Virus record (IMG/VR): IMGVR_UViG_3300030330_001233
Coordinates: 1-30,476 of that record
Length of the DNA stretch: 30,476 nucleotides
Origin: a virus
Lineage: Duplodnaviria; Caudoviricetes
Direction: 5' to 3' (one strand)
The translations under genes were made by a program, and so were the position numbers. The notes under the pieces were generated by a model. It saw only the letters and a program-made list of their open reading frames with translations, searched no databases and was not told the DNA's origin. This document shows positions 8,786 to 28,861 of the stretch, piece by piece. How positions within the stretch are numbered: the stretch's first letter is position 1; every line of letters begins with the position of its first letter.

Positions 8786-11700
8786 ATGCCAGAGATAAAA
8801 CGTTATTTTTCAAAGGCCAAAATGAACAAAGATCTTGATGAAAGAATTGTTCCTAATGGTGAATATAGAGACGCTATGAATATTCAGATATCTACGTCTG
8901 ATGCTGATGCTACGACTGGCGTAGGTAATGTTGGTGTTGTTCAAAATATACAAGGTAACTCAGAAGTAACTGAAACTTCAACAACGACTTGGAATAACAA
9001 TAATTCTAAAATTATAGCTAGCGCTGCCGATGAAGGTAATAATAAAACTTATTATTTTACAGCGGCTCCAGTTCCTATAGATGGTATACTAGATGGCGTT
9101 GATCCATCTACTATAACTGAAGAAGTTATTTGGATAGATAGTATAGTTGAAGTTGGAGTAGAAGGTCAAAGTGAAGATTTAAGTAGAAAATTTATTTTTA
9201 TAGATAAGTTTGCAATTACAAATACGGTATCTGGCGTTTTTGGACAAAATGCTATACCTGATGGCAGTAGTGATATTAGCACTTTAACTGTAGATAACGC
9301 TTCTAAATATAGAGTTGGTATGGAAATATATGTCCAAAAGCCAGACGGAGGTGCGGCATTAAGCGGTATAAGAATAACAAAAATAGATACTACTTTAAAT
9401 ATCTTATATTTATCTGATACTACAAGTTTTAATTTTACTCTTGCAAACATTGTTTTTAAATTTATTTATCCGCAAAGAGTTTTAGAATTTGATTATTACA
9501 ATGGTGACGCTTTTAGTTCTTTAAATTTAATTCCTTCAGCGTCTATAAATATTTTAGATAATTTATTAATGTGGTCAGATGGTAAGCATGAGCCTAAAAA
9601 AATAAATATAGATCGATGCGAAGCTGGAACTAACATAGGTGGCACGGCTAATGACGGTCAAACTCATACTAAATTATTTGTAAAAGATCCAGTTACAAAA
9701 GAATTAATTGATGTAGAAGATATAGAGCTTTTAGACACTGACACAAATTATACTTATCAAAGCTCTGACATAAAACTAGAAAATATAACTACAATTAAAA
9801 AAGCTCCTCTTTTACCACCTAATATTGAAATGTCAATTATAGAAAGAGATGAGGCAGTATTAGAGTTCCCACTAACACATCAATTTGTTATAGATAACAA
9901 TGTTCCAGAAGCAGGTGATATTCAAGTAATAGGTTTTGCAAGCTCTATAAATTATCAAGAAGATGATATATTTACGTTTACAGCACAAAACATAGAACCA
10001 CCAGTTGTTATAAGAGGTAAAGTTGTTGAGTCTGACGGAAATAACGCTGATGTTGAAATAATATTTGTAGACTCTGATTTAAGTGATTCAAACGACCCTA
10101 CTAATTGGATAGCTACATTAGAAGTAAAAAAACCTTTATTTGAAACAAAGTTTGGTAGACTTGGGTATAGATATAAATACGAAGACAATGAGTGTTCAAG
10201 TTTTTCTCCTTGGTCAGAATTAGCATTTTTACCTGGACCGTTTGAATATACTCCTCAAAAAGGATTTAATGAAGGTATGGCAAATACTGCTAGAAAAATA
10301 ATTATTAAAGACTTTATTCCAACTGTATATTCAAGGCCTTTAGACGTAAAAGCTATAGATATACTTTGGAAAACTACAGACAATGCTAACGTGTATATTG
10401 TTAAAACTTTGACAAGAGGTATAGATACTGAATGGAAAAATGTTAACGTTGACGGTATAGATGAAAGAGGCTCTCTTACTATAACTTCTGAAATGATATA
10501 CAAGGTTCTTGAAGAAACTCAACTTCTTAGATCTTGGGATAATGTTCCAAGGTATGCAAGAGCTCAAGGCATATCAAGTAATAGAATTTTATACGGAAAC
10601 TACGTTCAAGGCTACGATATGAAATCTAAAGTTAGTTTAATTCAATCAATAATATCACAACCGGTATCTTTTCCTACACCAAAAAAATCTGTAAAATCTT
10701 TAAGAAGTTATCAATTAGGTGTAGTTATTGGTGACGAGTTTGGCAGAGAAACTCCAGTTATATCAAGTGGTTATGAAATTAATCAAGACGACGGCACTTT
10801 TGAGGTTGTTCCAAACACTACAAAAATAGAAAAAAGTTTATCTAAATTTTCTAACAAAATTAAAGTAAAACCAAGATGGGAAAATTATGACCCAGTTAGC
10901 TCTGGCTGGATGAAATATCTTAAATACTATGTTAAAGAAACTAGTAACGAATATTATAATTTAGTTTTAAATAGATGGTATGATGCGTCAGATGACAATG
11001 TGTGGCTAGCTTTTAATTCAGCTGATAGAAACAAGGTTCAAGAAGGAGATTATTTAATACTAAAAAACGAACATGGTAGTCAAAATGCAGTTGAAGAAAA
11101 AGCTAGATATAAAATATTATCTATAGAAAACGAAGCTCCAGACTTTATTAAAACTAGCAATAATGATTTTCCTAAAGAAAAGATGGCTCCTAAACATATT
11201 TTTGGAGAAGATGGTTCTGGTACGGTATTACAACCAACAAACGCACACCCTAACAATATAATATCAGACGGCTCAGTAGCTTCACAAAGTGGTATTGATA
11301 GAATTTTATTAGAATCAGCAGAGCCAAATGATGATGATGAAACTCCATATTTAGACAATTTAAAATTTACAGGAACACCAATGTTGCGAATAGTTGGTGA
11401 ATTTACAGATACTGATGGAACTAAGTATGAAGCGTTTAGTCCATTTAAAAAAGTTACTAGAGTAATACAAGGTGGTGGCAATGGTGGCGAATATGGATTT
11501 GGTATTAGAGACCCATTTACTTTGTCTGAAGTTTTTATGTATCAAAAAATACAATTACAATTACCAGATGCTAGTACTATAGGAACTCCGCTACAATCAG
11601 TACAGGCGTTTATAGATTCAACAGCTCAGCAAGTAGAATATCACGTACAGCTTAGAGACGCTGTTGTAGAAAATAAACCAGAGTTTGATGGTAAGTTTTT

Positions 11701-14614
11701 TGTAAAAATAGCTAAAGACGCTGTTCTAAAAAATAAAGTCTTAGGTGATTCATTAGGCGAATATCAAGTCTTAGGTTCTTTTCAAGTAGCTTTTATAAGT
11801 AGTTTAGTAACAAATCCTGCTTACGCTACTAATGATTATGCAAGTGATATGCTTTATGAGACCTCAACTTGGGACAGTTATCTTGACGATGATACGTTTA
11901 CAAATAGTGATTTAAGCACAGATTTTGAAAATCAACCTGCTAATAACTTTGGCTCTGACGAAGCTTTGACAGATGCGTTTTGGGTTGATTGGTCTGACGA
12001 TCCAGATAGAACAGCAGATATATTTATAGATGGAGCTACTGCGTTTAGTGGGTTTGGTTACGAAAGTACTACTGGTAACGATGCAATGCCTGCTTTTAAT
12101 TTTGGAACATCTAAACAGGTTGTTGACGGTGACACTAGCAATTATCATCATTTTGGACTTTCTAATGGAACGTTTGTTAACGGAACTGAAGGTCAAATAA
12201 TTTTTTCTGTTATAGGTAAAGACAGATTTACTGGTTCTAGTTCTTATTTTAAAACTAAAATGCAAACTCCTGGTACTTTGTTTAGATTTGCAGATGATCC
12301 TAATCAAGTAGTTTATAGAGTTTTTCAATCTGTTCAAAACGTGCAAGCCGGCGGTCAAGTTGATGCTGGCCCTATAACTATAGAAAGTAAAAACTTTAAT
12401 AACGATGGTAGTAGTGATTTTGTAGATAGAACATCAATAATAGTTAGGTTTCATCGAGATGACGATAATAGCAGAGGTTTAGATAAAACAGTTTGGGATC
12501 CTAGAGGTGTAATACAACATAACGGACGTGGTAGTATGGCTATTGAAGTAGTTGATAAAGTCGCTGTTCAAAGCTTATCTGAAGATTCTATAGCTACATC
12601 AGCAGCTTGTTTTGAAACAGAGCCTAAAGAAGATTTAGGATTAGATATATACTATGAAGCTAGTAGAGCTTTACCAATAAACTTAGATGAAACTAATATT
12701 ATAGATTATACTGGCGCTCATATAATTGAAGAAAATGCAGCTAAATTTTCTGTTGGTGCTAGAAATAATCAGCCAGTAATTTTAACTGGTGATCCTTACG
12801 TTCATAGCGCTATAAATGAAAATGCTATTACTGTTAAAAGACTTACAAACTCAAACTTAACAACTGATATAAGCGATGATGGAGTAAGTGATGGAGTATG
12901 TGCTGCTATTAATGATTTTGTTTCATTTACACATAAAGATGATTTAGTGACTAAAGCACAAATATCTGATCATGCTAAAATAGTTAATAACACTACCGCG
13001 CCTTTAGCAATACCGTCGGATAGATATACTATATCTGGTAGTGGAGTACTTGATACTGTCAATATTCCTATTGCAGATTCTAACGCTAATAATGTTACTG
13101 TTGGCATGGAAGTTACTGGAGCAAATGTAGAGGCAGGAACATTTATAACACAAATAACAGACGGTGCTATTATTAGAATTTGCTCATTAAATCAGCAATT
13201 AATAACTAACGGTGACTCTAGTTTTACATTTATTGACGTAACAGGTGTTTTCTTTTTAAAGAAAAATGTTTATGTTCTTCCAGTAGAATTAGGTTGGTTT
13301 AATTGTTATTCGTTTGGCAATGGTGTAGAGTCTGATAGAATAAGAGATGATTTTAATACGCCTCAAATAGACAACGGTATTAAAGTTTCTTCAACGTTTT
13401 TAGAGTATGGACAAGAAGAAAAAACTAGTAGTATAATATACTCAGGCTTATATAACTCCACGTCAAGCACTAACGAGCTTAATCAGTTTAACATGGCTAA
13501 CAAAATAACTAAAGATTTAAATACTACTTACGGCTCTATACAAGCTATGAAAGCTAGAGATAATGATGTCGTAGTATTCACTGAAGATAAAATATTAAAA
13601 GTTTTATCAAGTGGTAAAGATGCTTTGTTTAACGCTGACGGTAACGCTCAATTAACTGCTACTAGTAGAGTTTTAGGAACGGCTATGCCATTTGCTGGAG
13701 ATTATGGTATATCTAAAAATCCAGAATCTTTAGCCACTGACGCTTATAGAATGTATTTTACAGACAAACAAAGAGGCGCTGTATTAAGATTATCAAGAGA
13801 TGGTTTAACACCTATATCAGATGTAGGTATGAAAGGATATTTTAGAGAAAAACTAAAATACCACACTAATATTTTAGGTTCATTTGATGGCGTTAATGAT
13901 GAGTATAATTTAACATTATTAAGATGGAACAAGTTTGGAGAAAGTAATACAGTTTCGCCGTCTGGTGATCAAACTATTTCTTTTAACGAAAAATCAAAAG
14001 GTTGGATAAGCTTTAAATCATTTATTCCAACGTCTTCTACTAACGTTACAGATAGGTATTATACAACTAATGAAAATAAAATATATAAACATTATGCTGC
14101 TACGGATCTTGTTGTTAATATTCCTGTTAGTAATTATAATACTTTTTATGGAACATATACGCCTTCTACTATAGATGTATTATTTAATGAATCAGCTAGC
14201 TCAATTAAATCTTTTAAAACAGTTAATTACGAAGGAACTCAAGGTAAAATAAATCAATTTACAACAGAAAGTATTGAAGACTCTACTGGCGCTATTGTTG
14301 ATTCTATAAACACAAACGGTGATGGAGAGTTTTATAATTTAGGAGCTACTAAAAAAGGATGGAGTGTTGAAAGCATAGAAACAGATTTACAAAAAGGTTC
14401 TGTTCCTGAGTTTGTAGAAAAAGAAGGTAAATGGTTTAATTATATTAAAGGAAACGATGAAGGTTTTATTTCCCAAAATTTGACAAATTTTAACACTCAA
14501 GGTTTAGGTTTTATATTAGCCGCCCCTGTAGCAACTGGCTTTACACCACAACAAGAAACAACGGCTTCAGGTACAGATGCTGATGGTAATGATTATCCAC
14601 AAACACCAGAATAA
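8786..14614 (+). CDS. Tail stabilisation / nozzle (muzzle) protein, P22 gp10-like
   Basis: 1942 aa. N-terminal 'KMNKDLDERIVPNGEYRDAMNI'; C-terminal beta-propeller-type segments 'YGISKNPESLA...YFTDKQRGAVLRLS.DGLTPIS..GM' and 'FNEKSKGWISFKSF'. Position in the tail module agrees. Confidence 0.7.
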   Translation: MPEIKRYFSKAKMNKDLDERIVPNGEYRDAMNIQISTSDADATTGVGNVGVVQNIQGNSEVTETSTTTWNNNNSKIIASAADEGNNKTYYFTAAPVPIDGILDGVDPSTITEEVIWIDSIVEVGVEGQSEDLSRKFIFIDKFAITNTVSGVFGQNAIPDGSSDISTLTVDNASKYRVGMEIYVQKPDGGAALSGIRITKIDTTLNILYLSDTTSFNFTLANIVFKFIYPQRVLEFDYYNGDAFSSLNLIPSASINILDNLLMWSDGKHEPKKINIDRCEAGTNIGGTANDGQTHTKLFVKDPVTKELIDVEDIELLDTDTNYTYQSSDIKLENITTIKKAPLLPPNIEMSIIERDEAVLEFPLTHQFVIDNNVPEAGDIQVIGFASSINYQEDDIFTFTAQNIEPPVVIRGKVVESDGNNADVEIIFVDSDLSDSNDPTNWIATLEVKKPLFETKFGRLGYRYKYEDNECSSFSPWSELAFLPGPFEYTPQKGFNEGMANTARKIIIKDFIPTVYSRPLDVKAIDILWKTTDNANVYIVKTLTRGIDTEWKNVNVDGIDERGSLTITSEMIYKVLEETQLLRSWDNVPRYARAQGISSNRILYGNYVQGYDMKSKVSLIQSIISQPVSFPTPKKSVKSLRSYQLGVVIGDEFGRETPVISSGYEINQDDGTFEVVPNTTKIEKSLSKFSNKIKVKPRWENYDPVSSGWMKYLKYYVKETSNEYYNLVLNRWYDASDDNVWLAFNSADRNKVQEGDYLILKNEHGSQNAVEEKARYKILSIENEAPDFIKTSNNDFPKEKMAPKHIFGEDGSGTVLQPTNAHPNNIISDGSVASQSGIDRILLESAEPNDDDETPYLDNLKFTGTPMLRIVGEFTDTDGTKYEAFSPFKKVTRVIQGGGNGGEYGFGIRDPFTLSEVFMYQKIQLQLPDASTIGTPLQSVQAFIDSTAQQVEYHVQLRDAVVENKPEFDGKFFVKIAKDAVLKNKVLGDSLGEYQVLGSFQVAFISSLVTNPAYATNDYASDMLYETSTWDSYLDDDTFTNSDLSTDFENQPANNFGSDEALTDAFWVDWSDDPDRTADIFIDGATAFSGFGYESTTGNDAMPAFNFGTSKQVVDGDTSNYHHFGLSNGTFVNGTEGQIIFSVIGKDRFTGSSSYFKTKMQTPGTLFRFADDPNQVVYRVFQSVQNVQAGGQVDAGPITIESKNFNNDGSSDFVDRTSIIVRFHRDDDNSRGLDKTVWDPRGVIQHNGRGSMAIEVVDKVAVQSLSEDSIATSAACFETEPKEDLGLDIYYEASRALPINLDETNIIDYTGAHIIEENAAKFSVGARNNQPVILTGDPYVHSAINENAITVKRLTNSNLTTDISDDGVSDGVCAAINDFVSFTHKDDLVTKAQISDHAKIVNNTTAPLAIPSDRYTISGSGVLDTVNIPIADSNANNVTVGMEVTGANVEAGTFITQITDGAIIRICSLNQQLITNGDSSFTFIDVTGVFFLKKNVYVLPVELGWFNCYSFGNGVESDRIRDDFNTPQIDNGIKVSSTFLEYGQEEKTSSIIYSGLYNSTSSTNELNQFNMANKITKDLNTTYGSIQAMKARDNDVVVFTEDKILKVLSSGKDALFNADGNAQLTATSRVLGTAMPFAGDYGISKNPESLATDAYRMYFTDKQRGAVLRLSRDGLTPISDVGMKGYFREKLKYHTNILGSFDGVNDEYNLTLLRWNKFGESNTVSPSGDQTISFNEKSKGWISFKSFIPTSSTNVTDRYYTTNENKIYKHYAATDLVVNIPVSNYNTFYGTYTPSTIDVLFNESASSIKSFKTVNYEGTQGKINQFTTESIEDSTGAIVDSINTNGDGEFYNLGATKKGWSVESIETDLQKGSVPEFVEKEGKWFNYIKGNDEGFISQNLTNFNTQGLGFILAAPVATGFTPQQETTASGTDADGNDYPQTPE

Positions 14615-16594: not shown

Positions 16595-17251
16595 ATGGGA
16601 TTAGGAAGTATTTTTTCAGGTATATATCAAGGCATTTCTGCTGGTAAAAGAAAGCGCGAGGCTAAAAAAGAAGAGCGCCAGGCTAAAAAAGAATACGATA
16701 GAATGAAAGAGGTGTATTCAAATGTAGATACTAGTAATCCATTTGAAGGCTTAATAAACCAATATGCTGGTTTAGAAAATACAATGGAAGATTTAACTAT
16801 TAATAAGCAGCAAGCAGAGTTTGAGTCTCAACAATTTGCACAAAGCCAAGCTAATGTACTAAGTGGTTTAAGAGGAGCCGCTGGTAGTAGTGGTATAGCA
16901 GCATTAGCTCAATCGTTAGCAAAACAAGGGCAAATAGCAGCGCAAAAAGCTTCTGCTAGTATAGGAGCGCAAGAAGCCGCTAATCAAAAATCTGAAGCTG
17001 CAATGGCAGGTAAACTTCAAGAAGCTGAAGCTAGAGGTCAAGCAGAAGTTGATAAACAAATAGCTGCTGGAGAGCAAACGTCTCAACAGTTAGAAATGAA
17101 AAAACAAGCTACGCTAATGGATATGGCTAACCAGCAATATACTTCAGCTCAGGCCGCTACAGATCAAGCAGCTAGAGATCAAGAGCAGGGTATATCTACC
17201 GCTATAAGCGGAACTGGTGATTTATTACAAAGCGCTATAGGTCTAGTTTAA
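16595..17251 (+). CDS. Putative internal virion / ejection (pilot-like) protein
   Basis: 218 aa, A/Q/G-rich and helical, with a Gly-rich amphipathic N-terminus (MGLGSIFSGIYQG) followed by a basic run. Composition and position fit small podoviral ejection proteins. Confidence 0.6.
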   Translation: MGLGSIFSGIYQGISAGKRKREAKKEERQAKKEYDRMKEVYSNVDTSNPFEGLINQYAGLENTMEDLTINKQQAEFESQQFAQSQANVLSGLRGAAGSSGIAALAQSLAKQGQIAAQKASASIGAQEAANQKSEAAMAGKLQEAEARGQAEVDKQIAAGEQTSQQLEMKKQATLMDMANQQYTSAQAATDQAARDQEQGISTAISGTGDLLQSAIGLV

Positions 17252-17263
17252 AATATTATAATA

Positions 17264-18223
17264 ATGGAAGAAGAATACGTACCACAAAGTCAACTTAGTC
17301 AATACGAAAGTTTTATTAAACAAATAAATGTTAACAAAGAACGCGATCCTGGTCCAGATAAAAATGAAAAAGATCAGATTAATAAGTATATAACTAATAA
17401 AAAAAAAGAGTATTTAAAGTCTGATAATAATAAAAAAGGTGAAATAAATGATGAAATTACTAAGTACGCTAACAATATAGTTACTAATGAAAATTTTATT
17501 GGTGAAATAAGTGATGCGTTAACTGATAGTTCTTTGTTTACTGAAAACAGTTATAATCAATTAGGAAATTTAGGACCTCAACTATTAGATATAATAAATA
17601 AAAAAAATAAACCAATTAATAAAGGCCAAAAATTAGGTTATCTTATTGATGGTGAATTTATGACAGCTGGTCAAATACAACAAAAAATAAAGTCAGTTCA
17701 GCTAGACCAAGACAGTATTAAAAAGTTTAATATAATGAGAGATGATATTATAACTAATGCTTCAAAAATACAGTCTTCTGAGTTTTCAGAGTTTAATCAA
17801 AATAAAATTAGAGAAAATGTTTATGATAATCTAGTATCTGTTGGCAATATAAGTTCGCTAGCTAATGACACTATAATAGGTAATAGAACATTTAAAAATG
17901 ATTTTAAAAAAGCTTTAACAGCAGGAACGTATAAAGATCTTGGTGTAACAGATGATATGATAGTAGATCCTACTCCAGCTGATAATAAAATAACATCAGA
18001 AGACGCCGATATTATATTTAATAATATTTCTAAAGATGAAGAAATGTTTAAAAACATGTTGACAGATTACTTTACTAATTCTTTATCTAATAATCACTAC
18101 ACTAATTTATCACCGCAGATTCAAAGAGATAGAAAAATGAATCAATACACACCACAGTCTACACAAGGCAACAACCAATACACACCTCAGGCTATAGCAT
18201 ATAAGCCTGGTATGCAATTATAG
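17264..18223 (+). CDS. Putative internal virion protein
   Basis: 319 aa, N/K/D-rich, between the pilot-like gene and the giant gene. Duplicated NQYTPQ at the C-terminus. Confidence 0.45.
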   Translation: MEEEYVPQSQLSQYESFIKQINVNKERDPGPDKNEKDQINKYITNKKKEYLKSDNNKKGEINDEITKYANNIVTNENFIGEISDALTDSSLFTENSYNQLGNLGPQLLDIINKKNKPINKGQKLGYLIDGEFMTAGQIQQKIKSVQLDQDSIKKFNIMRDDIITNASKIQSSEFSEFNQNKIRENVYDNLVSVGNISSLANDTIIGNRTFKNDFKKALTAGTYKDLGVTDDMIVDPTPADNKITSEDADIIFNNISKDEEMFKNMLTDYFTNSLSNNHYTNLSPQIQRDRKMNQYTPQSTQGNNQYTPQAIAYKPGMQL

Positions 18224-18251: not shown

Positions 18252-18514
18252 ATGGAAAGAGAATTTTATATCATTAAAGACGAAAATGGTACAGAACGAA
18301 AATATGCGATTAATAGTCAAGAAGAAAAAGATGACTTTTTTAATAATGCAAAAACAAATAATAAAAAAGTGTTTGACCAGTCAGGCAACGCTATAGATTT
18401 TAATAACATCCCTCGGCCGGGAAAGTCTCAAGGGACAGATCAGTCCCAAAACAATCAACAACAAAATACGGAATCCAGTTCGGAAAATACTTCATCGGAC
18501 TCACAATTAAATAA
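18252..18514 (+). CDS. Predicted 87-aa -1 transframe product of the giant gene
   Basis: Codons 1-58 (...PRPGK) joined to the -1 frame VSRDRSVPKQSTTKYGIQFGKYFIGLTIK, ending at TAA 18512-18514. The -1 frame is closed by TAA at 18404 and has no ATG of its own. Confidence 0.45.
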
Positions 18515-21500
18515 TACTGATTCTAAGATAGAAAAATCTTCAGAAAATGTAGTAGAAATAGGTGATGCAAGTAAAGGAAAAAAAACTAGCATGCTTAGCT
18601 TTTTGAAAAATGAAATTGAAAAAGATAATATAAGAGTTGAAGAGGCTGAAAGTAAATTAAAAAATATACCTGAAATAACTAAGCCAATAAAAAACGAAAC
18701 TGAGCTAGCTGAAAAACTTACTAATCAATATATTGAATTTGGATTTGAATTTGCTGAAGCAAATTACCTTGGGCAGACAGTTAAAATGATATCACCTGAT
18801 GGAAAACACTCAATAAAAATACATTTAAATAAATTAGATAAATCTCAAAAATTAATTAAAGATTTTTTTAAAAAACACTACGATCCAAACGCGCAAGATA
18901 TAACCCCTACTAAAGAAAGCGTAAAAAATCAAGTTGAAAAAACACGTAAAGAATCTGAAAAGAAAACTAAAACCGATATTGATGTTTTAGCTTCAAACTT
19001 TAATCCAGAGCAAGAAAAAACAGATAAAGAAAATTTATTAAATCAAATTAAAAATAAAAAATATTATACATACAACCCATCAGGAGAGACCAAAGAAGAA
19101 AGAGTAAATGAGTTCAATGCGTATGACGCGGTGCCTGCTCATATAGAAGAATATAGAAAACACAAAGTAACGCAATATAACGCACTTCATAAATATAAAA
19201 ACTTTTACGATCCAAACTTTGATACCTCAATAAGTGATGACGACATACTTATGTCGCCAGATTTTATGAAGTTTGTTAAGAAAAAACATGGAATTCAAGG
19301 AGACTTAGTTACTAAACGAATGGGTCTTGATGAAATAGAAAAATACAACAATAATAGAAAAACTCAAAAAGACAATGAAGCTGTTAGATTAGTTTCTAAA
19401 GAACAGTTTAGAAAATTTTTATCTGAAAAAAAACCGCCAGAAAAATTTGATGAGCAGTTATGGAACAGAGGCCTTCAAGGTGAAGGTGGTTATTTTAAAA
19501 ACCCAGAGTATTTAAAAATTGAAAATGAAAACAAAAAAAGAATTGGTGAGTACCTTTCAAAGTATAATCAAATACAGCAAAACCCCAATTATAGCGAGGA
19601 AGAACGTTTAACTTTACAAAACGAGTTAAAAAGTGAATACGATTTATTAGCAAACTCTTTACATGGTAATATACTACAGGAAAACAAGGTAGAAAATATT
19701 ACTAAGCAAGAAACAGAAGAAACAAGAAATTTAACAAAAGCTACTAAAAAGTATTTAGAAAAACAAAATTTAAAGCTTGGCAAAGAGCTAGCTGAAGAAG
19801 GATCAGTGTTGCTCAGCGAAAAAAATATTATTGAAGCTGAATTTGCTCCAATTCAAAAAGAATTAGTTAAAATTAATAACGAGTTAAAATCTACTCAGCC
19901 TGCACTAAATAAATTAAACAAAAAATATAATATAAATTTTAAAGAAGACGAAGAAGGTAATAAAATTTATAATCTTGACTATATAAATGAAGGTATTGAA
20001 AAAATAAATAAAAAGTATAAAGATTTACCTAAAACAGAAGAAGAATTAAAAGCATTATTAGACAAAAAAGTAGATGAAGTTAAAGCTAAATACGATCTTA
20101 CAGATCCAAAACAAGTTGAAAAAGCTAATAAAGAAGTAACAGAGTATCAACAAAACATACAAGATCAATTAAATACTGCAAATGACGAAATAAATACTTA
20201 TACAGAAAATGAGTTAAATAAAATACGACAGTATGAAAAAGAAAAAGATTTAATAATTAGCAAGCATAATAATAATTTAAAATTACATAAAGAAAAATAT
20301 AATGATTATTTATCTTTTGAAAAAAAGTATAATGAAATAAATGCTAAGCTAGATGGTTTTCAAGATACAAAGTTAGTTTTAGATTTATCTTTAGCTGAAA
20401 ATAGAAAAAGACTAACTGCTTTTGGTGACGGTGAGTGGTGGAATATAAAAAGCAAAGAAGTTCTTGGTAATTTTGCTCAAAATTTTATAGAAGCTGCTGG
20501 AGCTATTTACGATATAGGTGATAGATTTACAGATAATCTTGTAGACATATTTGTTGAAGACAAAGACAGCGCTCAATTTTTAAAAACAGTAAAAGCACAT
20601 ATGATACCATTAGGTCATTATTTTGATGAAGACTCTATGGGTGCAGTAACAGATAAAAAAACAGGATTAAAAATAAGCATGTACGATGAAGATAAGTTTA
20701 ATTTTGACAAAAGCATGGCTCTTGCTAATGAAAGAATAAAACAACCTTTATCTTGGGAAGATTTAAAAACTAACGGTGATGGAGCTGATTGGGCTGAATA
20801 TTTTATATCTCATGGTGTTAGTCAAGTTCCTGTATTATTAACAATAGCTAGTACTGGAGGTTATGCTTTACCTTTATTAGGACTAAATAGTGCCGGTGGC
20901 AAATATAAAGAATTAATTAAAGAAAAAAATTTATATGAGCAATCAGGCGGCTTGTATGGCCAAGATTTAAGTTACGGGCAAATAACTCTTAACGCTGGCG
21001 TAACTGGTCTTTTTGAAGGTGGATCTGAATATTTTACAGGTAGAATATTTTCAAGAACAATTAAAGCTTTAGCAGCTACACCTAAGCCTCTTGTTCAACG
21101 AGGCTTTATAAATCACATTGCTAGTATATTTAAACCTAAGAACTTATTGCACGTAGGTGGTGAGTGGGTTTCAGAAGGAGCCTCTGAAGTCTTAGCGCAG
21201 GCAGGTAGCAACATGGCTGACATATATATAAACGGAGACAAAACTGTTAACGTGTTAGATGGTTGGCAGGAAAATTTTGTAAACGGCTCAGCTTTTGCGG
21301 CAATGCTGCAATCGCCTAGAATATATGCTAACGCTATAGCTCCATTTACAAGTAACAACAAAGCAGTGTTAGGTAATATTGCTAGATCTTTAAATGATGT
21401 AGCTGTTGATATTTCTGATTTAAAAAACTTTGGTCCTAAGTATAGAGACTTAAGTAAAAAGGAACGTGAAAAACAAATAGAAGAGTTAGAAAATAAACAC

Positions 21501-24500
21501 GTGCAGTTAGTTACTCAATACGCAGATATAACTAATACTGATATAAAAAGAATAGATTTATTAAGTTCTAATGAAAAGAAAACTTTACTTAATATAAATA
21601 AATCTAATTTACAAGATCAAGAGCTAATAAATAAAACATTAAATGATAAACGTCTTAATGATGGCACTAGAGATCAAAGAATAAAAGATATAGAAAAAAG
21701 AATAAACAATAGAAATAATAAAAAGCAAAACATATTAGATAAATATCCACCAGAAGTAGTTAATAAAAACTACAAAAACCAAATGCAAAACATGCAGCAA
21801 ATGGCTAACATGGTTGCTAAAATGGGTGGACCAACCATATCAATACAGCAACTTACAAATGAAAAATATCAGCAAGCTGTAAAAGAAATAGAGTCTAAAA
21901 AACAAGACATGTCTAAGTCTGAAATAGAAGCTCGTACATCTGAGTTAGAAGCTTTATATGATGACTATACTAATATAATTGATAATTCAAAAAATAAAAA
22001 AGACGTAGAAGCTGCTAAAAAGAAAAGAGCAGAAATAACTAACGAGCTTGGTGTTGGTATAAATATTTTAAAAAGTAACAGCGCTGGTGTTATGTCACCT
22101 ATTATTGAAGACGGCAAAATTACTGGCATGAATATTTTAATTAATAAAGATGCAGTTGTAGATAATGGCATGTTTAATACCGGAGCACATGAGTTTATAC
22201 ATGCTACTTTTGCTAACACACTAAAGGGTGATCCAGCTATGAGGCAAGTATTAGGCGGTCAGCTTCAAAATATAATGGATGGTAAAGGCATTACGTTTAA
22301 ACCTGGTAAAGAAGCTGAATTTAAAGCAAAAATTTCACAATATAGACAAGATCAACAAGGTGAAGAAATGATGGCTGTTATGTCAGAAATGTTGATAAAA
22401 GGAGATATATCTATTAACAATAGCGTTTCAGAAAAAATAGCAGGTGTTTTTAGAAGATTTTCTCAAAATTACTTAGGTTACGATATTAAATTTGATTCTC
22501 AACAAGATATTAAAAATTTCTTAACTGACTATAGCAAATCATTTAAAAATAATAAGCCTAGTAAAGCTATAGCTAGAATGATAGCTGAAGGAGCTAATGG
22601 TAAAATATTTAAAGACGCTAGAACTCCTGAACAAATAAAAGATGAATCTATGTTTAGTTTAGCTGTTCAAAAAAATTTAAAATCAAATCCAGATTTAAGA
22701 CAAGATATAGACAGCGCTGTTCAAAATAATGATGGATCTTCTAAGCACTTAAATAACGAAGACTTCAAAGCATCTCCAGAATATATAGAAGCGTTTAATA
22801 AAATAACCGAAAGTAGGTTATTAGATGGTTTAATACAACAAGGTATGACTGATAAAGGCTTGCCAGGTGAAGCATTAAGAGATTTTACTAGAAAAGTAAA
22901 AGAAGAATTAGGTATTAGATATTTAAAAAACTTTGACTTAGATAAAAACGATAGCTTGTTCGGTTGGCTAACAGGCGTATCAGGTGGTGCTGGTATGTCT
23001 ATTATATATAGAGCCAAAGGTGACGTAATGAAACAATATGTTAAAGAAGGTAGAGCTCAAGACGTTTCTATAGATAAACCTATTAGTGAAGCTGGTACAA
23101 TAGCAGATGTTATAGAAGGTGATATAAATCAAGAAACAAAAGACGCTTTTGAAACTGAAGAAATAATACTTACTAGAGAAACAGAAACAGAAGTTCAAGG
23201 TACTTTAGTTAAAAAAGCTCTTAACTTTTCTGACCAAACAATAACAACTATAGAGAATTTAGCTAGAGATGTAGACTATAGCAATAAAAGTTTAAATTAT
23301 AAAAGTGTAAAAGATAATTTAACTAAAAAAGATGGTATATTGTATGATGCTTTAGATGCTGTTAGTAATGAAATAGGTATTGACGCTAACAGAATAATAA
23401 AAAATCAAGATTTAAATAATAAGCAAAGAACAGCTGCTCAAAAATACATTGTTGAAAATGCAGATACATTAATTAAATTATTACCAGAAGGCCAAGATCA
23501 AAGTGGTCAAGCTACAGGTGTAGCTAATACTAAGTTAGGTCAGTTTTATGTAAAAGGTGAAAGAGCTAAAATGAAAACTGGCGCTACAGCTGCTGGTCTA
23601 GCAACGCAAACAAAAAGAACAGACATAACTAAAGAAGAATTTTTAAATGTGTTTGGTGTAAATCCAGATGGCACGTTTCAAAAAGGAACTAAGGCTGATG
23701 GAGCTATAAGAGCTTTAGTTACTCAAGTTGCTACAACTGTAACTAATCAAGAGTTGCGTATGTCTGGTAATGCTGGTGCTAGATTAAAAGATGGTATGTC
23801 TGACGCTATGTATAGCTTAACTCCAGAGTTACAAGATATAACTACACAAGTAGTAAAATCATTTGACACCGCGTCATACGAAATAGCTAGAGAAGATTTA
23901 TTAAAAACACCTAACGGAGAAAAAATAGCTAATTTTCTCGATCAAATGTTATTTGAAAATAATATAGAAAGCCCGGGTGGTTATAACGATCAAGTTAGTA
24001 AATACATGCCTGGTTTATTTAAAGACTCTAAAACTGGTAAGAAAAAAATATATACAGGGCCTAAATTATCTAAGAAGTCAGATACTAGAAGTGATAAAGG
24101 AATTTGGGGTAAACCTATAGATGATTTAGCTATAAACACAGCGGCTACAATATCTACGCTACATCCTTCAATTAGTACTCAAGAAGCTATTTACGCATTT
24201 GGATTTAAAGACTCAGGCGCTTTTAAAATAAATGGAAAGCAAGTTGTGATTGATGGTGATCCAGCCGTTACTTTACGTACGCCTGCTGATAAATATTATC
24301 CAGCTCTATCAAACATAAATAGAATGACAGAGCAACAGGCTTTAAAAGAACGTAACGATATTATTAAGTCAGGATTAATGACAGAGGCAGAGTTTGATGC
24401 TATGGAAAATTCTAGTCCAATGGAAATGAAAGGTTTTATTGGAAAAACAATTACATCAATATATAGCGAAACTGATTTAAATAAAAAGCGCGACATGCTT

Positions 24501-27500
24501 AAAGAGGCGCTACCTCAAATACAAAAAATAAACGATGGCAATAGAGCTAAAATGAAGTATTTATCTATAAAGATGAAGCAAGCTTATGATGCAGGAAAAT
24601 TAACAATGCTAGACACATACTTGATTAACAAATTTCAAACTAATATTGTTGAAGGCACTAGAGCTTTAAGCTCTTTACACTCTATGTATTTAATAGAAGG
24701 TAAGCAAATAGGGCAAATGAAAAAACCACCAAAGCAAGTAACAAGAAATAAGAAAAGAGTACCAAATCCAAATTACGACTCTCAATTAAAGGAGTACTAT
24801 GATTCGTGGAAAACTTGTAAAGAGTTTGACAAAGTTACTAAAATAGCTAAAAAGAAATTTCCTAAAGCTAAAGGTCAAGAATTAGTAGATAAAACTATAA
24901 GTTTAATGAGGCCTAAAAACGAACATTTAGTTGGTTCTGCTATAACACATGCTAGAAGGGCGGGTTATACATTGGGTGATTCTAATATAACGCCTGATAA
25001 TATAGCTAACAATCATGAGACATTTTTTGGCCCTGTTTGGATCACTGATTTGTTTGATAGAAAACTTGAAGTTGATGGTAAATTAATAGATAATAAAGTT
25101 AGTTTAGAAGGAGAAAACAGATTAATAAAGTTTGCTGGTGGCAACCAAGCAAATATATATCATGTTAGCGGTGATAATATTGCTGATTTTAAAGTTAAAA
25201 AAGAACTAGCGCCTATATATAATGATCTTCAAAGTAAAAAAATTAAAAACACTGATACTCTTAATAGTTTAATACCTGAATCAGATGGTAAGCTAATGGG
25301 TAAAGATCCTGTAGAAGTTAAAGGAATGTCTGTATTTGACTTTGATGATACTTTAGGTATAACTAAATCTGGCGTTAGAGTAAAAATGCCTAATATAGAC
25401 GGTTTGCCTAAACCAAAACGTAAAGTTATATTTTTAGCTGGAGGCGCCGGTAGTGGTAAATCTAACGTTGTTAAAAAACTTAACTTAGAAAAACAAGGAT
25501 TTAAAATAGTTAACTCAGATATATCGCTAGAGTGGTTAAAGAAAAACTCAGGATTACCAGCTGATATGCGAGACTTAACTAAAGCGCAAAGAAGTACGTT
25601 AGGTAAATTAAGCGCAGAGTCTAGAAAAATAGCTAGACGTAAAATGATGAAATACAAAGGCGAAGGTAATGGCGTTGTTGTTGACGGCACTGGAGGTTCT
25701 ATAAAATCAATGACTAACTTAGTTAATGAGTTTAAAGACAAAGGTTATGATATTAGCATGTTGTACGTAGAAACTTCGTTAAACACAGCTTTAGAGCGTA
25801 ATAGAGCTAGAAAAGAAAGATCATTGCTAGATAAAATTGTACAACGTAACCACGAGGCCGTACAAAATAATAAACCTGCATTTAAAGATATGTTTGGTAA
25901 TAGGTTTATGCAAGTCAAAACAGATAACTTAGAGATAGGAGATCCTATGCCTAAAAATCTAGTTAGTAAGATGGACGACTTTGTATCTGGTTATGAAAAA
26001 CGTAGATTAGATGCTACTGAATTCGCGGAACAAGGTGAAACTATATTAGAGCAAGGTGGTGAGTTTGATTTTTCAGAATTCAATCAAGTTGTTGAAGGTA
26101 GACCAGGTCCATTACTAGATAAAGCTCTACAACGAGCTAAAAAATATGGAACTAAAGATATGTTTGTATTAACGGCTAGGCCGCCTAAATCAGCTGAAGC
26201 TATACAACAATTTTTAAAATCACAAGGTTTAGACATACCATTAAAAAATATAACTGGTTTAGCTAATAGTACTGGTGATGCTAAAGCTGAGTGGATGTTA
26301 GGTAAATTTAAAGAAGGCTATAACGATATGTACTTCGCTGATGATGCAATGCAAAACGTTACAGCTGTTAAAGAAGTGTTAGATCAACTTGATATTAAAT
26401 CAGATGTTGTTCAAGCAAAATTAAAACAGTCTAATAGGTTAGTTGATAATAGTGATACTATGCAAAGTAAAATTATAGAGCCTAGCCAAAACATAGATAT
26501 GGATTTTAACGAAATGCTTGAGCGTAAAAAAGGCATGGATGCTAAAAAAAGAATATCAGGTGCTGAAGCTAGAGTACGTGGTAGAGACATAGGTAGATTT
26601 GATTTTTACATACCACCATCAGCAGAAGATTTTAAAGGCTTATTATATTACTTTTTAGGTAAAGGTAAGCAAGGTGATGCTGACATGAAATTTTTTAGCG
26701 ATAAGTTATTAAAACCTTTTGCAGCTGGTATTAGAACTTGGAATACTTATAAACAAAGTATGGCTAATGATTTTAGATCTTTAAAAAAACAAAGTCCTAA
26801 TGTTGTAAAAATATTAAATGATTTAGTGCCTGGAACTAACTTTACTAATGATTCTGCTATAAGAGTTTATTTATGGAACAAAGCTGGTAAACAGATACCT
26901 AATATATCTAAAAATTTAGAAAAAGAATTAGTTAGGCATATTAGTAACAATCCTGCATTAAAATCTTTTGCCGAAGCATTAGCTAAAATATCAAGAACAA
27001 ATAATAATTACACAGAGCCCGGGCAAAATTGGGTTATTGGTAGTATAGCTAGAGACTTATCAGAAACTGTAAACAAGGTTGGTAGAAAACAATTTTTATC
27101 TGAGTGGATTAATAATAAAGATATTATATTTAGTCCAGACAATATTAACAAAATAGAAGCTCTATATGGTACTAGATATAGAGAGGCTTTAGAAAACATA
27201 TTGTATCGTATGGAAAACGGTGGCAATAGAGTTATGAGCAATGATAGAGACACTAACTTTATGGTTAACTGGATTAATGGTGCAGTTGGTTCTATAATGT
27301 TTTTTAATATGAGATCTGCTATACTTCAAACTATATCAGCTGTTAACTTTGTAAACTTTAGTGATAATAATATATTTAAAGCAACAGCTGCTTTTGCTAA
27401 TCAACCGCAGTTTTGGAAAGACTTTGTAATGTTGTTTAATTCTGATCAACTAAAACAAAGAAGAGCAGGGCTACAAACAGACGTATCAGCCTCTGAACTT

Positions 27501-28820
27501 GTTAAATCATTTAAAGAAAATGGTAACACTTATGGAGCTGTAGTTAATTATTTATTAGAAAAAGGTTTTACGCCTACACAAATTGCTGACAGCGTAGCTA
27601 TAGCTTTTGGTGGTGCTAGTTTTTATAGAAACAGATTTAAAAAATATAAAAAACAAGGCATGACAGATGCTCAAGCTAATGAGCAGGCTATGTTAGACTT
27701 TCAAGAAATAGCAGAAGAAACACAGCAGTCATCAAGAGAAGATTTAGTTTCTAAACAACAGGCTAGTATATTAGGTCGTATCATATTAGCGTTTCAAAAT
27801 GTTACAATGCAATATGGTAGATTAACTAAGAAAGCTTTATCTGATTTAGTTAATCGTAGAGGTGATACTAAAACTAACATATCTAAAATATTATACTACG
27901 GCGCTGTACAAAATATAGTATTTGCTAGTTTACAATCAGCGTTAGCATTTATGATGTTTGGTGATGAAGAAGAAGAAGTAATAAAAGAAAAAGAAGTTAG
28001 AGTAGCTAATACTATTTTAGATTCATTTTTAAGAGGTACTGGTATATATGGAGCGTTAGCATCTACATTAAAAAACGTGGCTCTAGAATGGCACGTGCAA
28101 TCACAAAAAGCTAAAGAAGGTTTTAAAAAAGATGAAATAATGGATATAGCTCAAGAAGCTTTAAACTTATCTCCTCCAATTGGCGCTAAAGTTAGAAAGT
28201 TAATTCAAGCTTATAAAATGAAGGAGTTTGGTAGAACAGCCACAAGAGATAAATTAAAATATAGATTAGAAAACCCTAAGTTAGCTGCCGCTGCTAGCTT
28301 AATAGAAGGCGTTACAAACATACCACTAGCTAGATTATTAAATAAGGCTAACAACTTAGAGGAAGCTATAACTGGACAACACGAAACATGGAAACGTGTA
28401 GCTATGGCATTAGGTTGGAGCAGATGGGAATTAGGACTAAAAGATGAAGAAGTTGAAGCTGCTAGAGAAGAAGTTAAAGAAGAAAAGAAAGTCGAAAGAG
28501 AAATTAAGAGAGAAGAAAAGAAAGAAGAAAAAAGAAAAGAAAAAGAAGAGCAAAAGAAAAAAGAAGAAGAAGAGAAAAAGAAAAAAGGTATTAAAACAGT
28601 TAGATGTTCTGGTATAAGATCTAATGGTACTAGATGTAAGATAACAGGTGAGACTAATAAGAAAAAATTTTTATGTGTTCATCATGCTGAATTTAAAGAT
28701 GGTATGGATAGAGACGGTGATGGCAAGAAAGAATATAGGTGTACAGCTACTAAATCTAACGGCAAAAGATGTAAGAACAAAACAGAGAATAAAAACAAAA
28801 AGTGTTATGCTCACCAATAA
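18252..28820 (+). CDS. Giant multidomain (polyvalent) internal virion/ejection protein
   Basis: 3522 aa uninterrupted ORF with coiled coils, Gly/Ala hydrophobic segments (about 20790-21320), HEFIH (22188-22202), a sigma-like segment (about 22770-23130), HAD motifs DFDDT/LTAR/FADD, Walker A GGAGSGKS (25440-25463) and two C-terminal CCCH repeats. Confidence 0.75.
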   Translation: MEREFYIIKDENGTERKYAINSQEEKDDFFNNAKTNNKKVFDQSGNAIDFNNIPRPGKSQGTDQSQNNQQQNTESSSENTSSDSQLNNTDSKIEKSSENVVEIGDASKGKKTSMLSFLKNEIEKDNIRVEEAESKLKNIPEITKPIKNETELAEKLTNQYIEFGFEFAEANYLGQTVKMISPDGKHSIKIHLNKLDKSQKLIKDFFKKHYDPNAQDITPTKESVKNQVEKTRKESEKKTKTDIDVLASNFNPEQEKTDKENLLNQIKNKKYYTYNPSGETKEERVNEFNAYDAVPAHIEEYRKHKVTQYNALHKYKNFYDPNFDTSISDDDILMSPDFMKFVKKKHGIQGDLVTKRMGLDEIEKYNNNRKTQKDNEAVRLVSKEQFRKFLSEKKPPEKFDEQLWNRGLQGEGGYFKNPEYLKIENENKKRIGEYLSKYNQIQQNPNYSEEERLTLQNELKSEYDLLANSLHGNILQENKVENITKQETEETRNLTKATKKYLEKQNLKLGKELAEEGSVLLSEKNIIEAEFAPIQKELVKINNELKSTQPALNKLNKKYNINFKEDEEGNKIYNLDYINEGIEKINKKYKDLPKTEEELKALLDKKVDEVKAKYDLTDPKQVEKANKEVTEYQQNIQDQLNTANDEINTYTENELNKIRQYEKEKDLIISKHNNNLKLHKEKYNDYLSFEKKYNEINAKLDGFQDTKLVLDLSLAENRKRLTAFGDGEWWNIKSKEVLGNFAQNFIEAAGAIYDIGDRFTDNLVDIFVEDKDSAQFLKTVKAHMIPLGHYFDEDSMGAVTDKKTGLKISMYDEDKFNFDKSMALANERIKQPLSWEDLKTNGDGADWAEYFISHGVSQVPVLLTIASTGGYALPLLGLNSAGGKYKELIKEKNLYEQSGGLYGQDLSYGQITLNAGVTGLFEGGSEYFTGRIFSRTIKALAATPKPLVQRGFINHIASIFKPKNLLHVGGEWVSEGASEVLAQAGSNMADIYINGDKTVNVLDGWQENFVNGSAFAAMLQSPRIYANAIAPFTSNNKAVLGNIARSLNDVAVDISDLKNFGPKYRDLSKKEREKQIEELENKHVQLVTQYADITNTDIKRIDLLSSNEKKTLLNINKSNLQDQELINKTLNDKRLNDGTRDQRIKDIEKRINNRNNKKQNILDKYPPEVVNKNYKNQMQNMQQMANMVAKMGGPTISIQQLTNEKYQQAVKEIESKKQDMSKSEIEARTSELEALYDDYTNIIDNSKNKKDVEAAKKKRAEITNELGVGINILKSNSAGVMSPIIEDGKITGMNILINKDAVVDNGMFNTGAHEFIHATFANTLKGDPAMRQVLGGQLQNIMDGKGITFKPGKEAEFKAKISQYRQDQQGEEMMAVMSEMLIKGDISINNSVSEKIAGVFRRFSQNYLGYDIKFDSQQDIKNFLTDYSKSFKNNKPSKAIARMIAEGANGKIFKDARTPEQIKDESMFSLAVQKNLKSNPDLRQDIDSAVQNNDGSSKHLNNEDFKASPEYIEAFNKITESRLLDGLIQQGMTDKGLPGEALRDFTRKVKEELGIRYLKNFDLDKNDSLFGWLTGVSGGAGMSIIYRAKGDVMKQYVKEGRAQDVSIDKPISEAGTIADVIEGDINQETKDAFETEEIILTRETETEVQGTLVKKALNFSDQTITTIENLARDVDYSNKSLNYKSVKDNLTKKDGILYDALDAVSNEIGIDANRIIKNQDLNNKQRTAAQKYIVENADTLIKLLPEGQDQSGQATGVANTKLGQFYVKGERAKMKTGATAAGLATQTKRTDITKEEFLNVFGVNPDGTFQKGTKADGAIRALVTQVATTVTNQELRMSGNAGARLKDGMSDAMYSLTPELQDITTQVVKSFDTASYEIAREDLLKTPNGEKIANFLDQMLFENNIESPGGYNDQVSKYMPGLFKDSKTGKKKIYTGPKLSKKSDTRSDKGIWGKPIDDLAINTAATISTLHPSISTQEAIYAFGFKDSGAFKINGKQVVIDGDPAVTLRTPADKYYPALSNINRMTEQQALKERNDIIKSGLMTEAEFDAMENSSPMEMKGFIGKTITSIYSETDLNKKRDMLKEALPQIQKINDGNRAKMKYLSIKMKQAYDAGKLTMLDTYLINKFQTNIVEGTRALSSLHSMYLIEGKQIGQMKKPPKQVTRNKKRVPNPNYDSQLKEYYDSWKTCKEFDKVTKIAKKKFPKAKGQELVDKTISLMRPKNEHLVGSAITHARRAGYTLGDSNITPDNIANNHETFFGPVWITDLFDRKLEVDGKLIDNKVSLEGENRLIKFAGGNQANIYHVSGDNIADFKVKKELAPIYNDLQSKKIKNTDTLNSLIPESDGKLMGKDPVEVKGMSVFDFDDTLGITKSGVRVKMPNIDGLPKPKRKVIFLAGGAGSGKSNVVKKLNLEKQGFKIVNSDISLEWLKKNSGLPADMRDLTKAQRSTLGKLSAESRKIARRKMMKYKGEGNGVVVDGTGGSIKSMTNLVNEFKDKGYDISMLYVETSLNTALERNRARKERSLLDKIVQRNHEAVQNNKPAFKDMFGNRFMQVKTDNLEIGDPMPKNLVSKMDDFVSGYEKRRLDATEFAEQGETILEQGGEFDFSEFNQVVEGRPGPLLDKALQRAKKYGTKDMFVLTARPPKSAEAIQQFLKSQGLDIPLKNITGLANSTGDAKAEWMLGKFKEGYNDMYFADDAMQNVTAVKEVLDQLDIKSDVVQAKLKQSNRLVDNSDTMQSKIIEPSQNIDMDFNEMLERKKGMDAKKRISGAEARVRGRDIGRFDFYIPPSAEDFKGLLYYFLGKGKQGDADMKFFSDKLLKPFAAGIRTWNTYKQSMANDFRSLKKQSPNVVKILNDLVPGTNFTNDSAIRVYLWNKAGKQIPNISKNLEKELVRHISNNPALKSFAEALAKISRTNNNYTEPGQNWVIGSIARDLSETVNKVGRKQFLSEWINNKDIIFSPDNINKIEALYGTRYREALENILYRMENGGNRVMSNDRDTNFMVNWINGAVGSIMFFNMRSAILQTISAVNFVNFSDNNIFKATAAFANQPQFWKDFVMLFNSDQLKQRRAGLQTDVSASELVKSFKENGNTYGAVVNYLLEKGFTPTQIADSVAIAFGGASFYRNRFKKYKKQGMTDAQANEQAMLDFQEIAEETQQSSREDLVSKQQASILGRIILAFQNVTMQYGRLTKKALSDLVNRRGDTKTNISKILYYGAVQNIVFASLQSALAFMMFGDEEEEVIKEKEVRVANTILDSFLRGTGIYGALASTLKNVALEWHVQSQKAKEGFKKDEIMDIAQEALNLSPPIGAKVRKLIQAYKMKEFGRTATRDKLKYRLENPKLAAAASLIEGVTNIPLARLLNKANNLEEAITGQHETWKRVAMALGWSRWELGLKDEEVEAAREEVKEEKKVEREIKREEKKEEKRKEKEEQKKKEEEEKKKKGIKTVRCSGIRSNGTRCKITGETNKKKFLCVHHAEFKDGMDRDGDGKKEYRCTATKSNGKRCKNKTENKNKKCYAHQ
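18419..18447 (+). other. Candidate programmed -1 ribosomal frameshift signal
   Basis: In-phase G_GGA_AAG (18419-18425), a 6-nt spacer TCTCAA, then the hairpin GGGAC-AGATCA-GTCCC (18432-18447). Confidence 0.6.
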
Positions 28821-28844: not shown

Positions 28845-28861
28845 CAAAAACAAAAAAAAAT

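Follow-up and report, generated by a model that had tools for sequence, protein, structure and literature searches.

A conserved dual-coding cassette for probable −1 recoding at the start of a giant, likely ejection gene in podoviruses of Bacteroidota

The viral DNA analysed here (30,476 nucleotides, hereafter the window) encodes a giant protein of 3522 amino acids, and the 5' end of this gene carries a cassette that, judged from sequence comparison, is a real and conserved dual-coding recoding element, i.e. a known mechanism in a new class of gene. Ribosomal −1 frameshifting on G_GGA_AAG, stimulated by a hairpin or pseudoknot, is the reading we hold with high confidence. The short product is very probably selected as a protein, and the combination of recoding with a functional short protein, its membrane role not included, is likely. 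In outline, a fraction of ribosomes would shift by −1 on the heptamer, aided by the hairpin, which many relatives replace with a pseudoknot, and would release an unannotated 87-aa protein composed of the shared N-terminal module and a predicted β-hairpin tail. The ratio of giant to short protein would be set by the shift rate.

The coordinates of the cassette and of its surroundings are collected in Table 1. A sequence-only reading of the window had proposed a frameshift site here, and its description of the parts proved accurate. The heptamer lies in X_XXY_YYZ phase, the GC-rich GGGAC/GTCCC hairpin follows 6 nt past it, and 58 shared plus 29 tail codons give the predicted 87-aa shift product. 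The −1 frame, described as start-less with a stop at 18404, indeed holds no ATG, GTG or TTG; it has stops at 18401 and 18404, is open over 18407–18511 and is closed by the stop at 18512–18514. GGGAAAG is unique among the 47 phased X_XXY_YYZ heptamers of the giant gene, and none of the 595 stop-free −1 segments in that gene is longer than the one in the cassette. The unusual codon usage noted around the cassette held in part: codons 55–87 comprise both TCC codons and the sole CGG of the giant gene, whereas GC3 is less striking, with 105 of 3489 windows equally high. Dual-coding constraint, also suspected earlier, is apparent from synonymous resampling with the frame-0 protein fixed, in which the −1 frame stayed open in 0 of 200 draws and a stem of equal strength arose in 0 of 200. 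The hairpin itself is predicted at −8.8 kcal/mol; its z-score is −3.4 to −4.3 when short segments are folded but only −1.7 for the full 110 nt. Contigs of runs X1 and X3, possibly the record's own source, match the cassette stretch letter for letter, and a single RNA run, X20, gave no cover over it. With Rfam covariance models nothing reached gathering score, the window giving two sub-threshold matches outside the element and the eight loci searched giving none. A second GGGAAAG-type heptamer, out of −1 phase, is found at 4243 in the capsid gene.

Table 1 Features of the window discussed in the text
Feature	Position	Strand	Remark
Muzzle-like tail gene	8786..14614	+	Used for motif-independent choice of relatives
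218-aa gene	16595..17251	+	First of likely ejection trio; phi18:3 equivalent gp120 MS/MS-detected
319-aa gene	17264..18223	+	Second of trio; phi18:3 positional equivalent gp121 MS/MS-detected
Intergenic stretch ahead of start codon	18220..18251	+	Conserved; 5' border of N-terminal module swaps
Giant 3522-aa ORF (frame 0)	18252..28820	+	Last of three likely ejection/cargo genes
Shared 58-aa N-terminal module	18252..18425	+	In both predicted products
Slippery heptamer G_GGA_AAG	18419..18425	+	X_XXY_YYZ phase, codons 57-58 of giant
−1 frame tail, 29 codons and stop	18425..18514	+	Accessible by shift only
6-nt spacer	18426..18431	+	Between heptamer and stem
Predicted stimulatory hairpin	18432..18447	+	GGGAC-AGATCA-GTCCC
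Conserved −1 motif YGIQFGKYFIGLT	18467..18505	+	Predicted β-hairpin
Zeta-toxin/PNK-like P-loop kinase domain	25413..25871	+	aa 2388-2540 of giant

Its capsid and portal homologues and its gene order place the window in a podovirus of Bacteroidota with relatives among Pachyviridae, Pervagoviridae and Elemovirus. Besides the genes for terminase, portal, capsid and muzzle it carries the three likely ejection genes and one that resembles an endolysin gene. The best identities of capsid and portal are 45% and 49%, with matches in phages of Flavobacterium, Cellulophaga, Maribacter and Tenacibaculum that are classified as Elemovirus, Pervagoviridae and Pachyviridae; the order of head, tail and ejection genes is likewise common to the window and podoviruses of these groups. 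Matches to crass phages were clear for the muzzle and weak, below cut-off, for the capsid. The positional equivalents of the giant, phi40:1 gp101 and phi18:3 gp123, carry annotations as structural proteins detected by MS/MS. Its first 1500 aa gave no match among GenBank phages. The kinase domain, present in P0002 too, is the single domain detected in the giant; no RNA polymerase domain was found in it by Pfam, PHROGs or NCBIfam, the virus record being 64% complete.

Relatives were chosen by the muzzle gene, independently of the motif. From 80 muzzle-picked loci, 30 that fall short of the giant's start, two whose last ORF is not the giant and one duplicate were removed, which left 47. Both the −1 peptide and the phased slip site, whose conservation had been put forward as a check on the sequence-only reading, recur in this set. 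A motif YG-hydrophobic-x-FG-[RK]-[WY]-F-[FI]-G near the 5' end of the giant gene is present in the −1 frame of 25 of the 47 relatives (21 strict, 4 near). A phased G_GGA_AA[GC], classed by eye, is present in 19 of these 25, in 0 of the 22 motif-less loci and in 0 of the 47 preceding genes (Fisher p 2.6e-8), and the two other phases hold it in 1/25 and 0/25 motif loci. A wider form of the motif pattern occurs nowhere else in the 25 positive loci and in none of the six frames of the 22 negatives. The depressed synonymous variation that had been predicted for frame 0 appears as a bias of substitutions towards silence in −1: among nearest-neighbour differences in the 25 loci, 59 are silent in −1 only, 20 in frame 0 only and 118 in neither, counts that are biased by the definition of motif classes in the −1 frame and in which four motif positions are fixed by the selection of loci. 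Under the same bias, motif identity is 0.54 in −1 versus 0.36 in frame 0, and motif entropy peaks at the −1 wobble position; a W/Y exchange in −1 corresponds to G/T in frame 0. The 25 loci, 36 pattern-picked ones and the window together form a set of 62 motif loci. Their slip sites are mostly G_GGA_AAG (25), the others being G_GAU_UUU, G_GGA_AAC, A_AAA_AAG, A_GUA_AAG and A_AAU_UUU. An ATG, GTG or TTG in the −1 frame is found in 0 of the 62, and this conserved −1 ORF without a start of its own is as expected of a frameshift element.

Closer to the window, L001 and L002 keep the heptamer and replace an A–U pair of the stem by G–C on both sides, a compensatory exchange; each also has one C-to-T change that is silent in −1 and alters frame 0. 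The end of DNA similarity in L002 coincides with the end of the −1 motif, while L006 retains slip site and motif with a longer linker. One contig, record 14 of run X9, has a changed slip site (window 18421) and has also lost 15 nt of the motif (window 18480), which fits a joint decay of the two, yet also shows dispensability. The 22 of 47 relatives that do without the cassette are scattered patchily on the muzzle tree (14 changes versus a shuffled mean of 16.2). With so many close relatives lacking it, the cassette is not universally essential and is either dispensable or often replaced. In a cassette-less close relative (L064, 15065 onward), A8 and A9 runs are seen at codons 87–90, without an aromatic tail.

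For the stem, the slip site of each of the 62 loci was picked from heptamer classes set by eye, structure playing no part in the choice. Stems of −10 kcal or below start at offset 6 in 37 and at offset 7 in 45 of the 62 loci; at offsets −30 to +4 they start in 0–5. In many relatives the stem folds as an H-type pseudoknot, as found by a simple search that returns weak, doubtful second stems too. Across 11 hand-chosen loci 90% of cells are paired and 6 of 14 pairs show two-sided changes, a covariation matched by 0 of 500 shuffles and above all slid controls, and inflated by the relatedness of the loci and the hand choice of structure. Together with the exchange in L001 and L002 this provides the covariation expected of the hairpin if the sequence-only reading was right, and a covarying stem or pseudoknot 5–9 nt downstream is in keeping with a frameshift element. 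The window's own hairpin is weak: its stem counts 5 bp and the pseudoknot search gave nothing convincing in the window, so that shifting may be infrequent. Structurally, the comparison identifies this simple hairpin as a reduced form of the H-type pseudoknot of the relatives. A CxC in 40 of the 62 linkers overlies a pseudoknot arm and is missing from 22, the window included; metal binding by CxC was set aside for these two reasons.

The spread of the arrangement was followed with peptide patterns. A degenerate pattern returned 44 viral loci (38 distinct), all 44 with the peptide read in −1 shortly after a long ORF begins, and the N-termini of these long ORFs are unrelated. The Trp variant returned at least 120 loci, 115 of them distinct; 114 have the same −1 context and one has a short frame 0, and about 340 stored IMG/VR stretches are estimated to carry the pattern. 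In L232 the motif is present and frame 0 stops 42 codons further on. Being selected on the peptide, these sets show spread and not constraint. Across all sets, the cassette arrangement is judged to be conserved in more than 100 related phage contigs. Among the 120 matches listed for genome contigs, 116 carry the Leu/Phe-tRNA protein transferase GES motif (Pfam check on 4), and one is a full cassette, on a 10-kb Flavobacteriales MAG contig (L345), reflecting either a host link or binning contamination. The likeness of the tail motif to an 11-residue stretch of the bacterial transferases (PF03588; L342–L461) is probably convergence, with mimicry as the alternative.

A second clade carries an A10 run. 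The 80 loci nearest phi18:3 contain 28 giant starts, 27 of them distinct, the phi46:3 record and one ambiguous locus being excluded. In all 27 an A10 or A11 run falls within codons 1–130 and the giant is in frame; runs of at least ten A occur in 0 of the 27 preceding genes and twice in 516 kb elsewhere. This clade has −1 tails of basic and aromatic character, and the motif recurs in many of them. Few loci (6 of 27) have a strong stem, and no more than 14 of the 27 keep the −1 frame open beyond chance (p <= 0.05). A similar division runs through the 115 Trp-pattern loci: 68 are of the heptamer type, 62 of them with a strong stem (the site there being picked by its stem), and 47 are of the A-run type, 5 of them with a strong stem and the run often 2–8 nt from the motif. 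An A10 run that mostly lacks a strong stem and leads into a similar tail suggests polymerase slippage. Here, as distinct from the window, a conserved run of nine or more A coincides with a constrained alternative frame, the combination looked for in transcriptional slippage, and the −1 frame of the A10 clade is probably entered when RNA polymerase slips or the ribosome slides. A three-product model that includes the +1 frame was rejected, as +1 is open for only 0–81 codons in heptamer loci and beyond chance in 6 of 27 A10 loci. In the window, A9 runs are found at 17399 (319-aa gene) and at 28852, just past the giant's stop.

The A10-type cassette is also present in cultured Cellulophaga, Flavobacterium and Tenacibaculum phages. 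All 11 GenBank phage records examined contain an A9–A11 run: six phages have A10–A11 with the giant in frame, and in five the run is A9 and the giant is out of frame. These five giants are annotated as split or truncated (phi18:3, L054:23310-23633; phi13:2, L058:6119; phi19:3, L059:8056; phi46:3, L060:6119; Panino, L052:31592). According to PMC11590407, Panino was Nanopore-sequenced. Because of this, and because 27 of 27 metagenomic giants are in frame, A9 is probably a homopolymer under-call; the Nanopore argument concerns Panino alone, the other four A9 records being Baltivirus. The idea that these giants need a shift was therefore dropped in favour of a likely sequencing error.

Both predicted products begin with the same 58 residues, in place of which relatives carry unrelated modules, and no stand-alone homologue (31–102 aa) of this part was found. 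On this comparison the N-terminal part is an interchangeable module rather than a conserved sequence. Module swaps are bounded by the conserved intergenic stretch on the 5' side and by the stimulator on the 3' side. Several unrelated short modules, often as tandem pairs, are seen at the 5' ends of giants L007–L341; giants that have the cassette and giants that lack it exchange these modules, which are candidate head-loading signals. The intergenic stretch is nearly invariant in relatives with differing N-termini and may be a regulatory or recombination site. Since the modules are of several unrelated, swapped types, the hairpin is unlikely to complete their fold.

The −1 tails comprise 28–56 codons, with invariant glycines and hairpin periodicity. 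AlphaFold2 places a hairpin at residues 19–25/28–34 (block pLDDT 84 and 75; pTM 0.24), and alternating tail positions form one hydrophobic face, Y1/I3/F5/Y8/I10/L12. The tails are basic and aromatic with a median charge of +5 (62 loci), and presumably resemble cationic β-hairpin antimicrobial peptides. The tail is predicted to be a cationic amphipathic β-hairpin, with membrane binding as its most likely role. Two hairpin-like motifs stand in tandem within the −1 tail of L164, L194 and L052. A search of the tail profile against 1.84 billion predicted proteins returned 24 matches, 23 of which, by eye, are a giant-type N-terminal module fused in frame to the tail; the 10 such fusions looked up (of P0004–P0027) are all singletons, therefore probably indel variants or errors, and are given little weight. 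Further searches gave no usable match for the tail and only sub-0.9 leads for the N-terminus in ESM Atlas, one chance-level match (E 0.24) for the tail profile in PDB sequences, nothing below E 6.8 for the hairpin in Foldseek (NhaA hairpin rows not being significant), and no PHROGs family for the 62 tails.

As to function, a co-packaged, membrane-binding ejection accessory is favoured over an assembly factor or a DNA or capsid tether, and these over a mere throttle. The shared module would act as a head-loading or docking signal by which the short protein is packaged together with the giant, and the tail would probably anchor that module to the membrane; with its net positive charge the hairpin may bind LPS or the membrane surface and help to seat the ejection channel. 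This packaging and binding scheme is offered tentatively. More tentative still is its extension to a large set of Bacteroidota podoviruses from sea and fresh water, in which a small, unannotated ejection protein would be encoded wholly by recoding, lineages would switch between pseudoknot-driven shift and A10 slippage to reach the same membrane-active hairpin, and the protein, loaded via the giant's N-terminal signal, would help to breach the host envelope.

A short protein made by a genuine shift could instead work in assembly, in the manner of lambda gpG/gpGT with the sizes reversed, and need not be ejected; the shared module would bind portal, scaffold or capsid, and the hairpin a conserved structural protein, DNA or itself, thereby setting the loading of the giant. 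We regard this as a serious but rather unlikely option. It would explain why the hairpin is conserved while ejection proteins diverge fast (the giants of L002 and the window are 37% identical over their first 400 aa), which suggests a conserved partner, and it would suit a basic and aromatic tail. There is also precedent in lambda, where G attaches to the tape measure and T to the major tail protein, and virions contain neither product (PMC5009743). On the other hand, gene layouts inspected by eye show no gene whose gain or loss clearly follows the cassette, and the one-sided hydrophobic face suits a membrane equally well.

It is improbable that the shift merely throttles synthesis of the giant and that the short product is a by-product tagged for degradation. 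A truncating shift near the 5' end does cut giant output directly, a "ribosome sink" has been suggested for lambda cI (PMC5009743), and the cassette is absent from 22 of 47 relatives. Yet an immediate −1 stop would do as well, and what is found are glycine-conserving tails of hairpin periodicity, reached in similar form by two different recoding signals.

Even less probable is an untranslated −1 frame, its letters being conserved as a DNA or RNA element or as the by-product of a Ser/Thr/Glu linker. By the genetic code, S/T/D/E/G codons yield aromatic residues and Gly when read in −1, and the CxC on the pseudoknot arm is probably such a by-product. Against this reading, the 62 loci yield no consensus RNA fold across the motif, differences are mostly silent in −1 and not in frame 0, and the motif co-occurs with phased heptamer and stem. 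An open −1 frame seldom survives synonymous resampling (mean 0.026), and the antisense frames have stops in 31, 62 and 28 of the 62 loci. Finally, translation of the −1 ORF from a non-standard start of its own, or a pattern created by assembly errors, to which the 24 database proteins with the tail in frame and the A9 variants of five GenBank records might point, is barely credible given 0/62 loci with ATG/GTG/TTG, a window identical in contigs of two runs, single-member clusters for 10/10 in-frame proteins looked up and the in-frame form in 0 of 115 viral loci.

The cassette would add a class of phage recoding beyond tail chaperones and capsid extensions, namely a truncating shift that heads a giant virion gene and encodes a conserved hidden peptide. 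It offers a wealth of naturally occurring pseudoknot variants that covary and are predicted to work on bacterial ribosomes, as well as a natural exchange between two recoding mechanisms. It also points to the N-terminal modules in the search for head-loading signals of ejection proteins, and suggests homopolymer errors behind the split or truncated giants of five GenBank phages. With the cultured relatives phi38:1, phi40:1, Calle_1, Gundel_1 and the elemo phages, some of which already have virion MS data, the proposal can be tested directly.

Among known systems, the giant resembles crassvirus cargo and the T7, P22 and N4 ejection proteins in being large and encoded past the muzzle (cargo concept from PMC10172136); unlike crassvirus cargo, it shows no detected RNA polymerase domain. 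Phage polyvalent proteins are likewise giant and likely virion-borne, with a zeta-toxin-like kinase among the domains listed in PMC5512222; the giant, by contrast, has one detected domain. The word "frameshift" is absent from the main texts of PMC5512222, PMC10172136 and PMC13434306, and no published description of the cassette was found in the literature covered, with most subscription journals and supplements outside its scope. As for the mechanism, PMC5009743 describes G_GGA_AAG as shift-prone in E. coli and both G_GGA_AAG and G_GGA_AAC as used at the g-t sites of haloarchaeal tailed viruses. The same paper describes shifts in T7/T3 gene 10 and capsid or tail Ig extensions, where, as proposed here, a −1 shift in a virion gene adds a C-terminal module. 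Those shifts lie near the 3' end and lengthen the protein, unlike the truncating cassette at the 5' end.

GGGAAAG is also the slip site of lambda gpG/gpGT itself. As proposed for the cassette, a −1 shift there gives two products with a common N-terminus at a set ratio, 30:1 according to PMC5009743. The lambda shift extends a short product, whereas the cassette would truncate a 3522-aa product at codon 58, and does so in the likely ejection or cargo gene of a podovirus, with a 3' stem or pseudoknot. Nor does the cassette gene sit between major tail and tape-measure genes as a chaperone would: none was matched in the window, the layout of which is podovirus-like. The truncated γ product of dnaX gains almost no new sequence. 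The dnaX γ/τ pair is a parallel in two respects: its recoding truncates, and a slippery heptamer and a homopolymer replace one another, Thermus thermophilus relying on polymerase slippage where E. coli uses a −1 ribosomal shift (PMC5009743). Unlike dnaX, the −1 frame of the cassette encodes a conserved tail of 28–56 aa, and both types of signal are found within one phage group.
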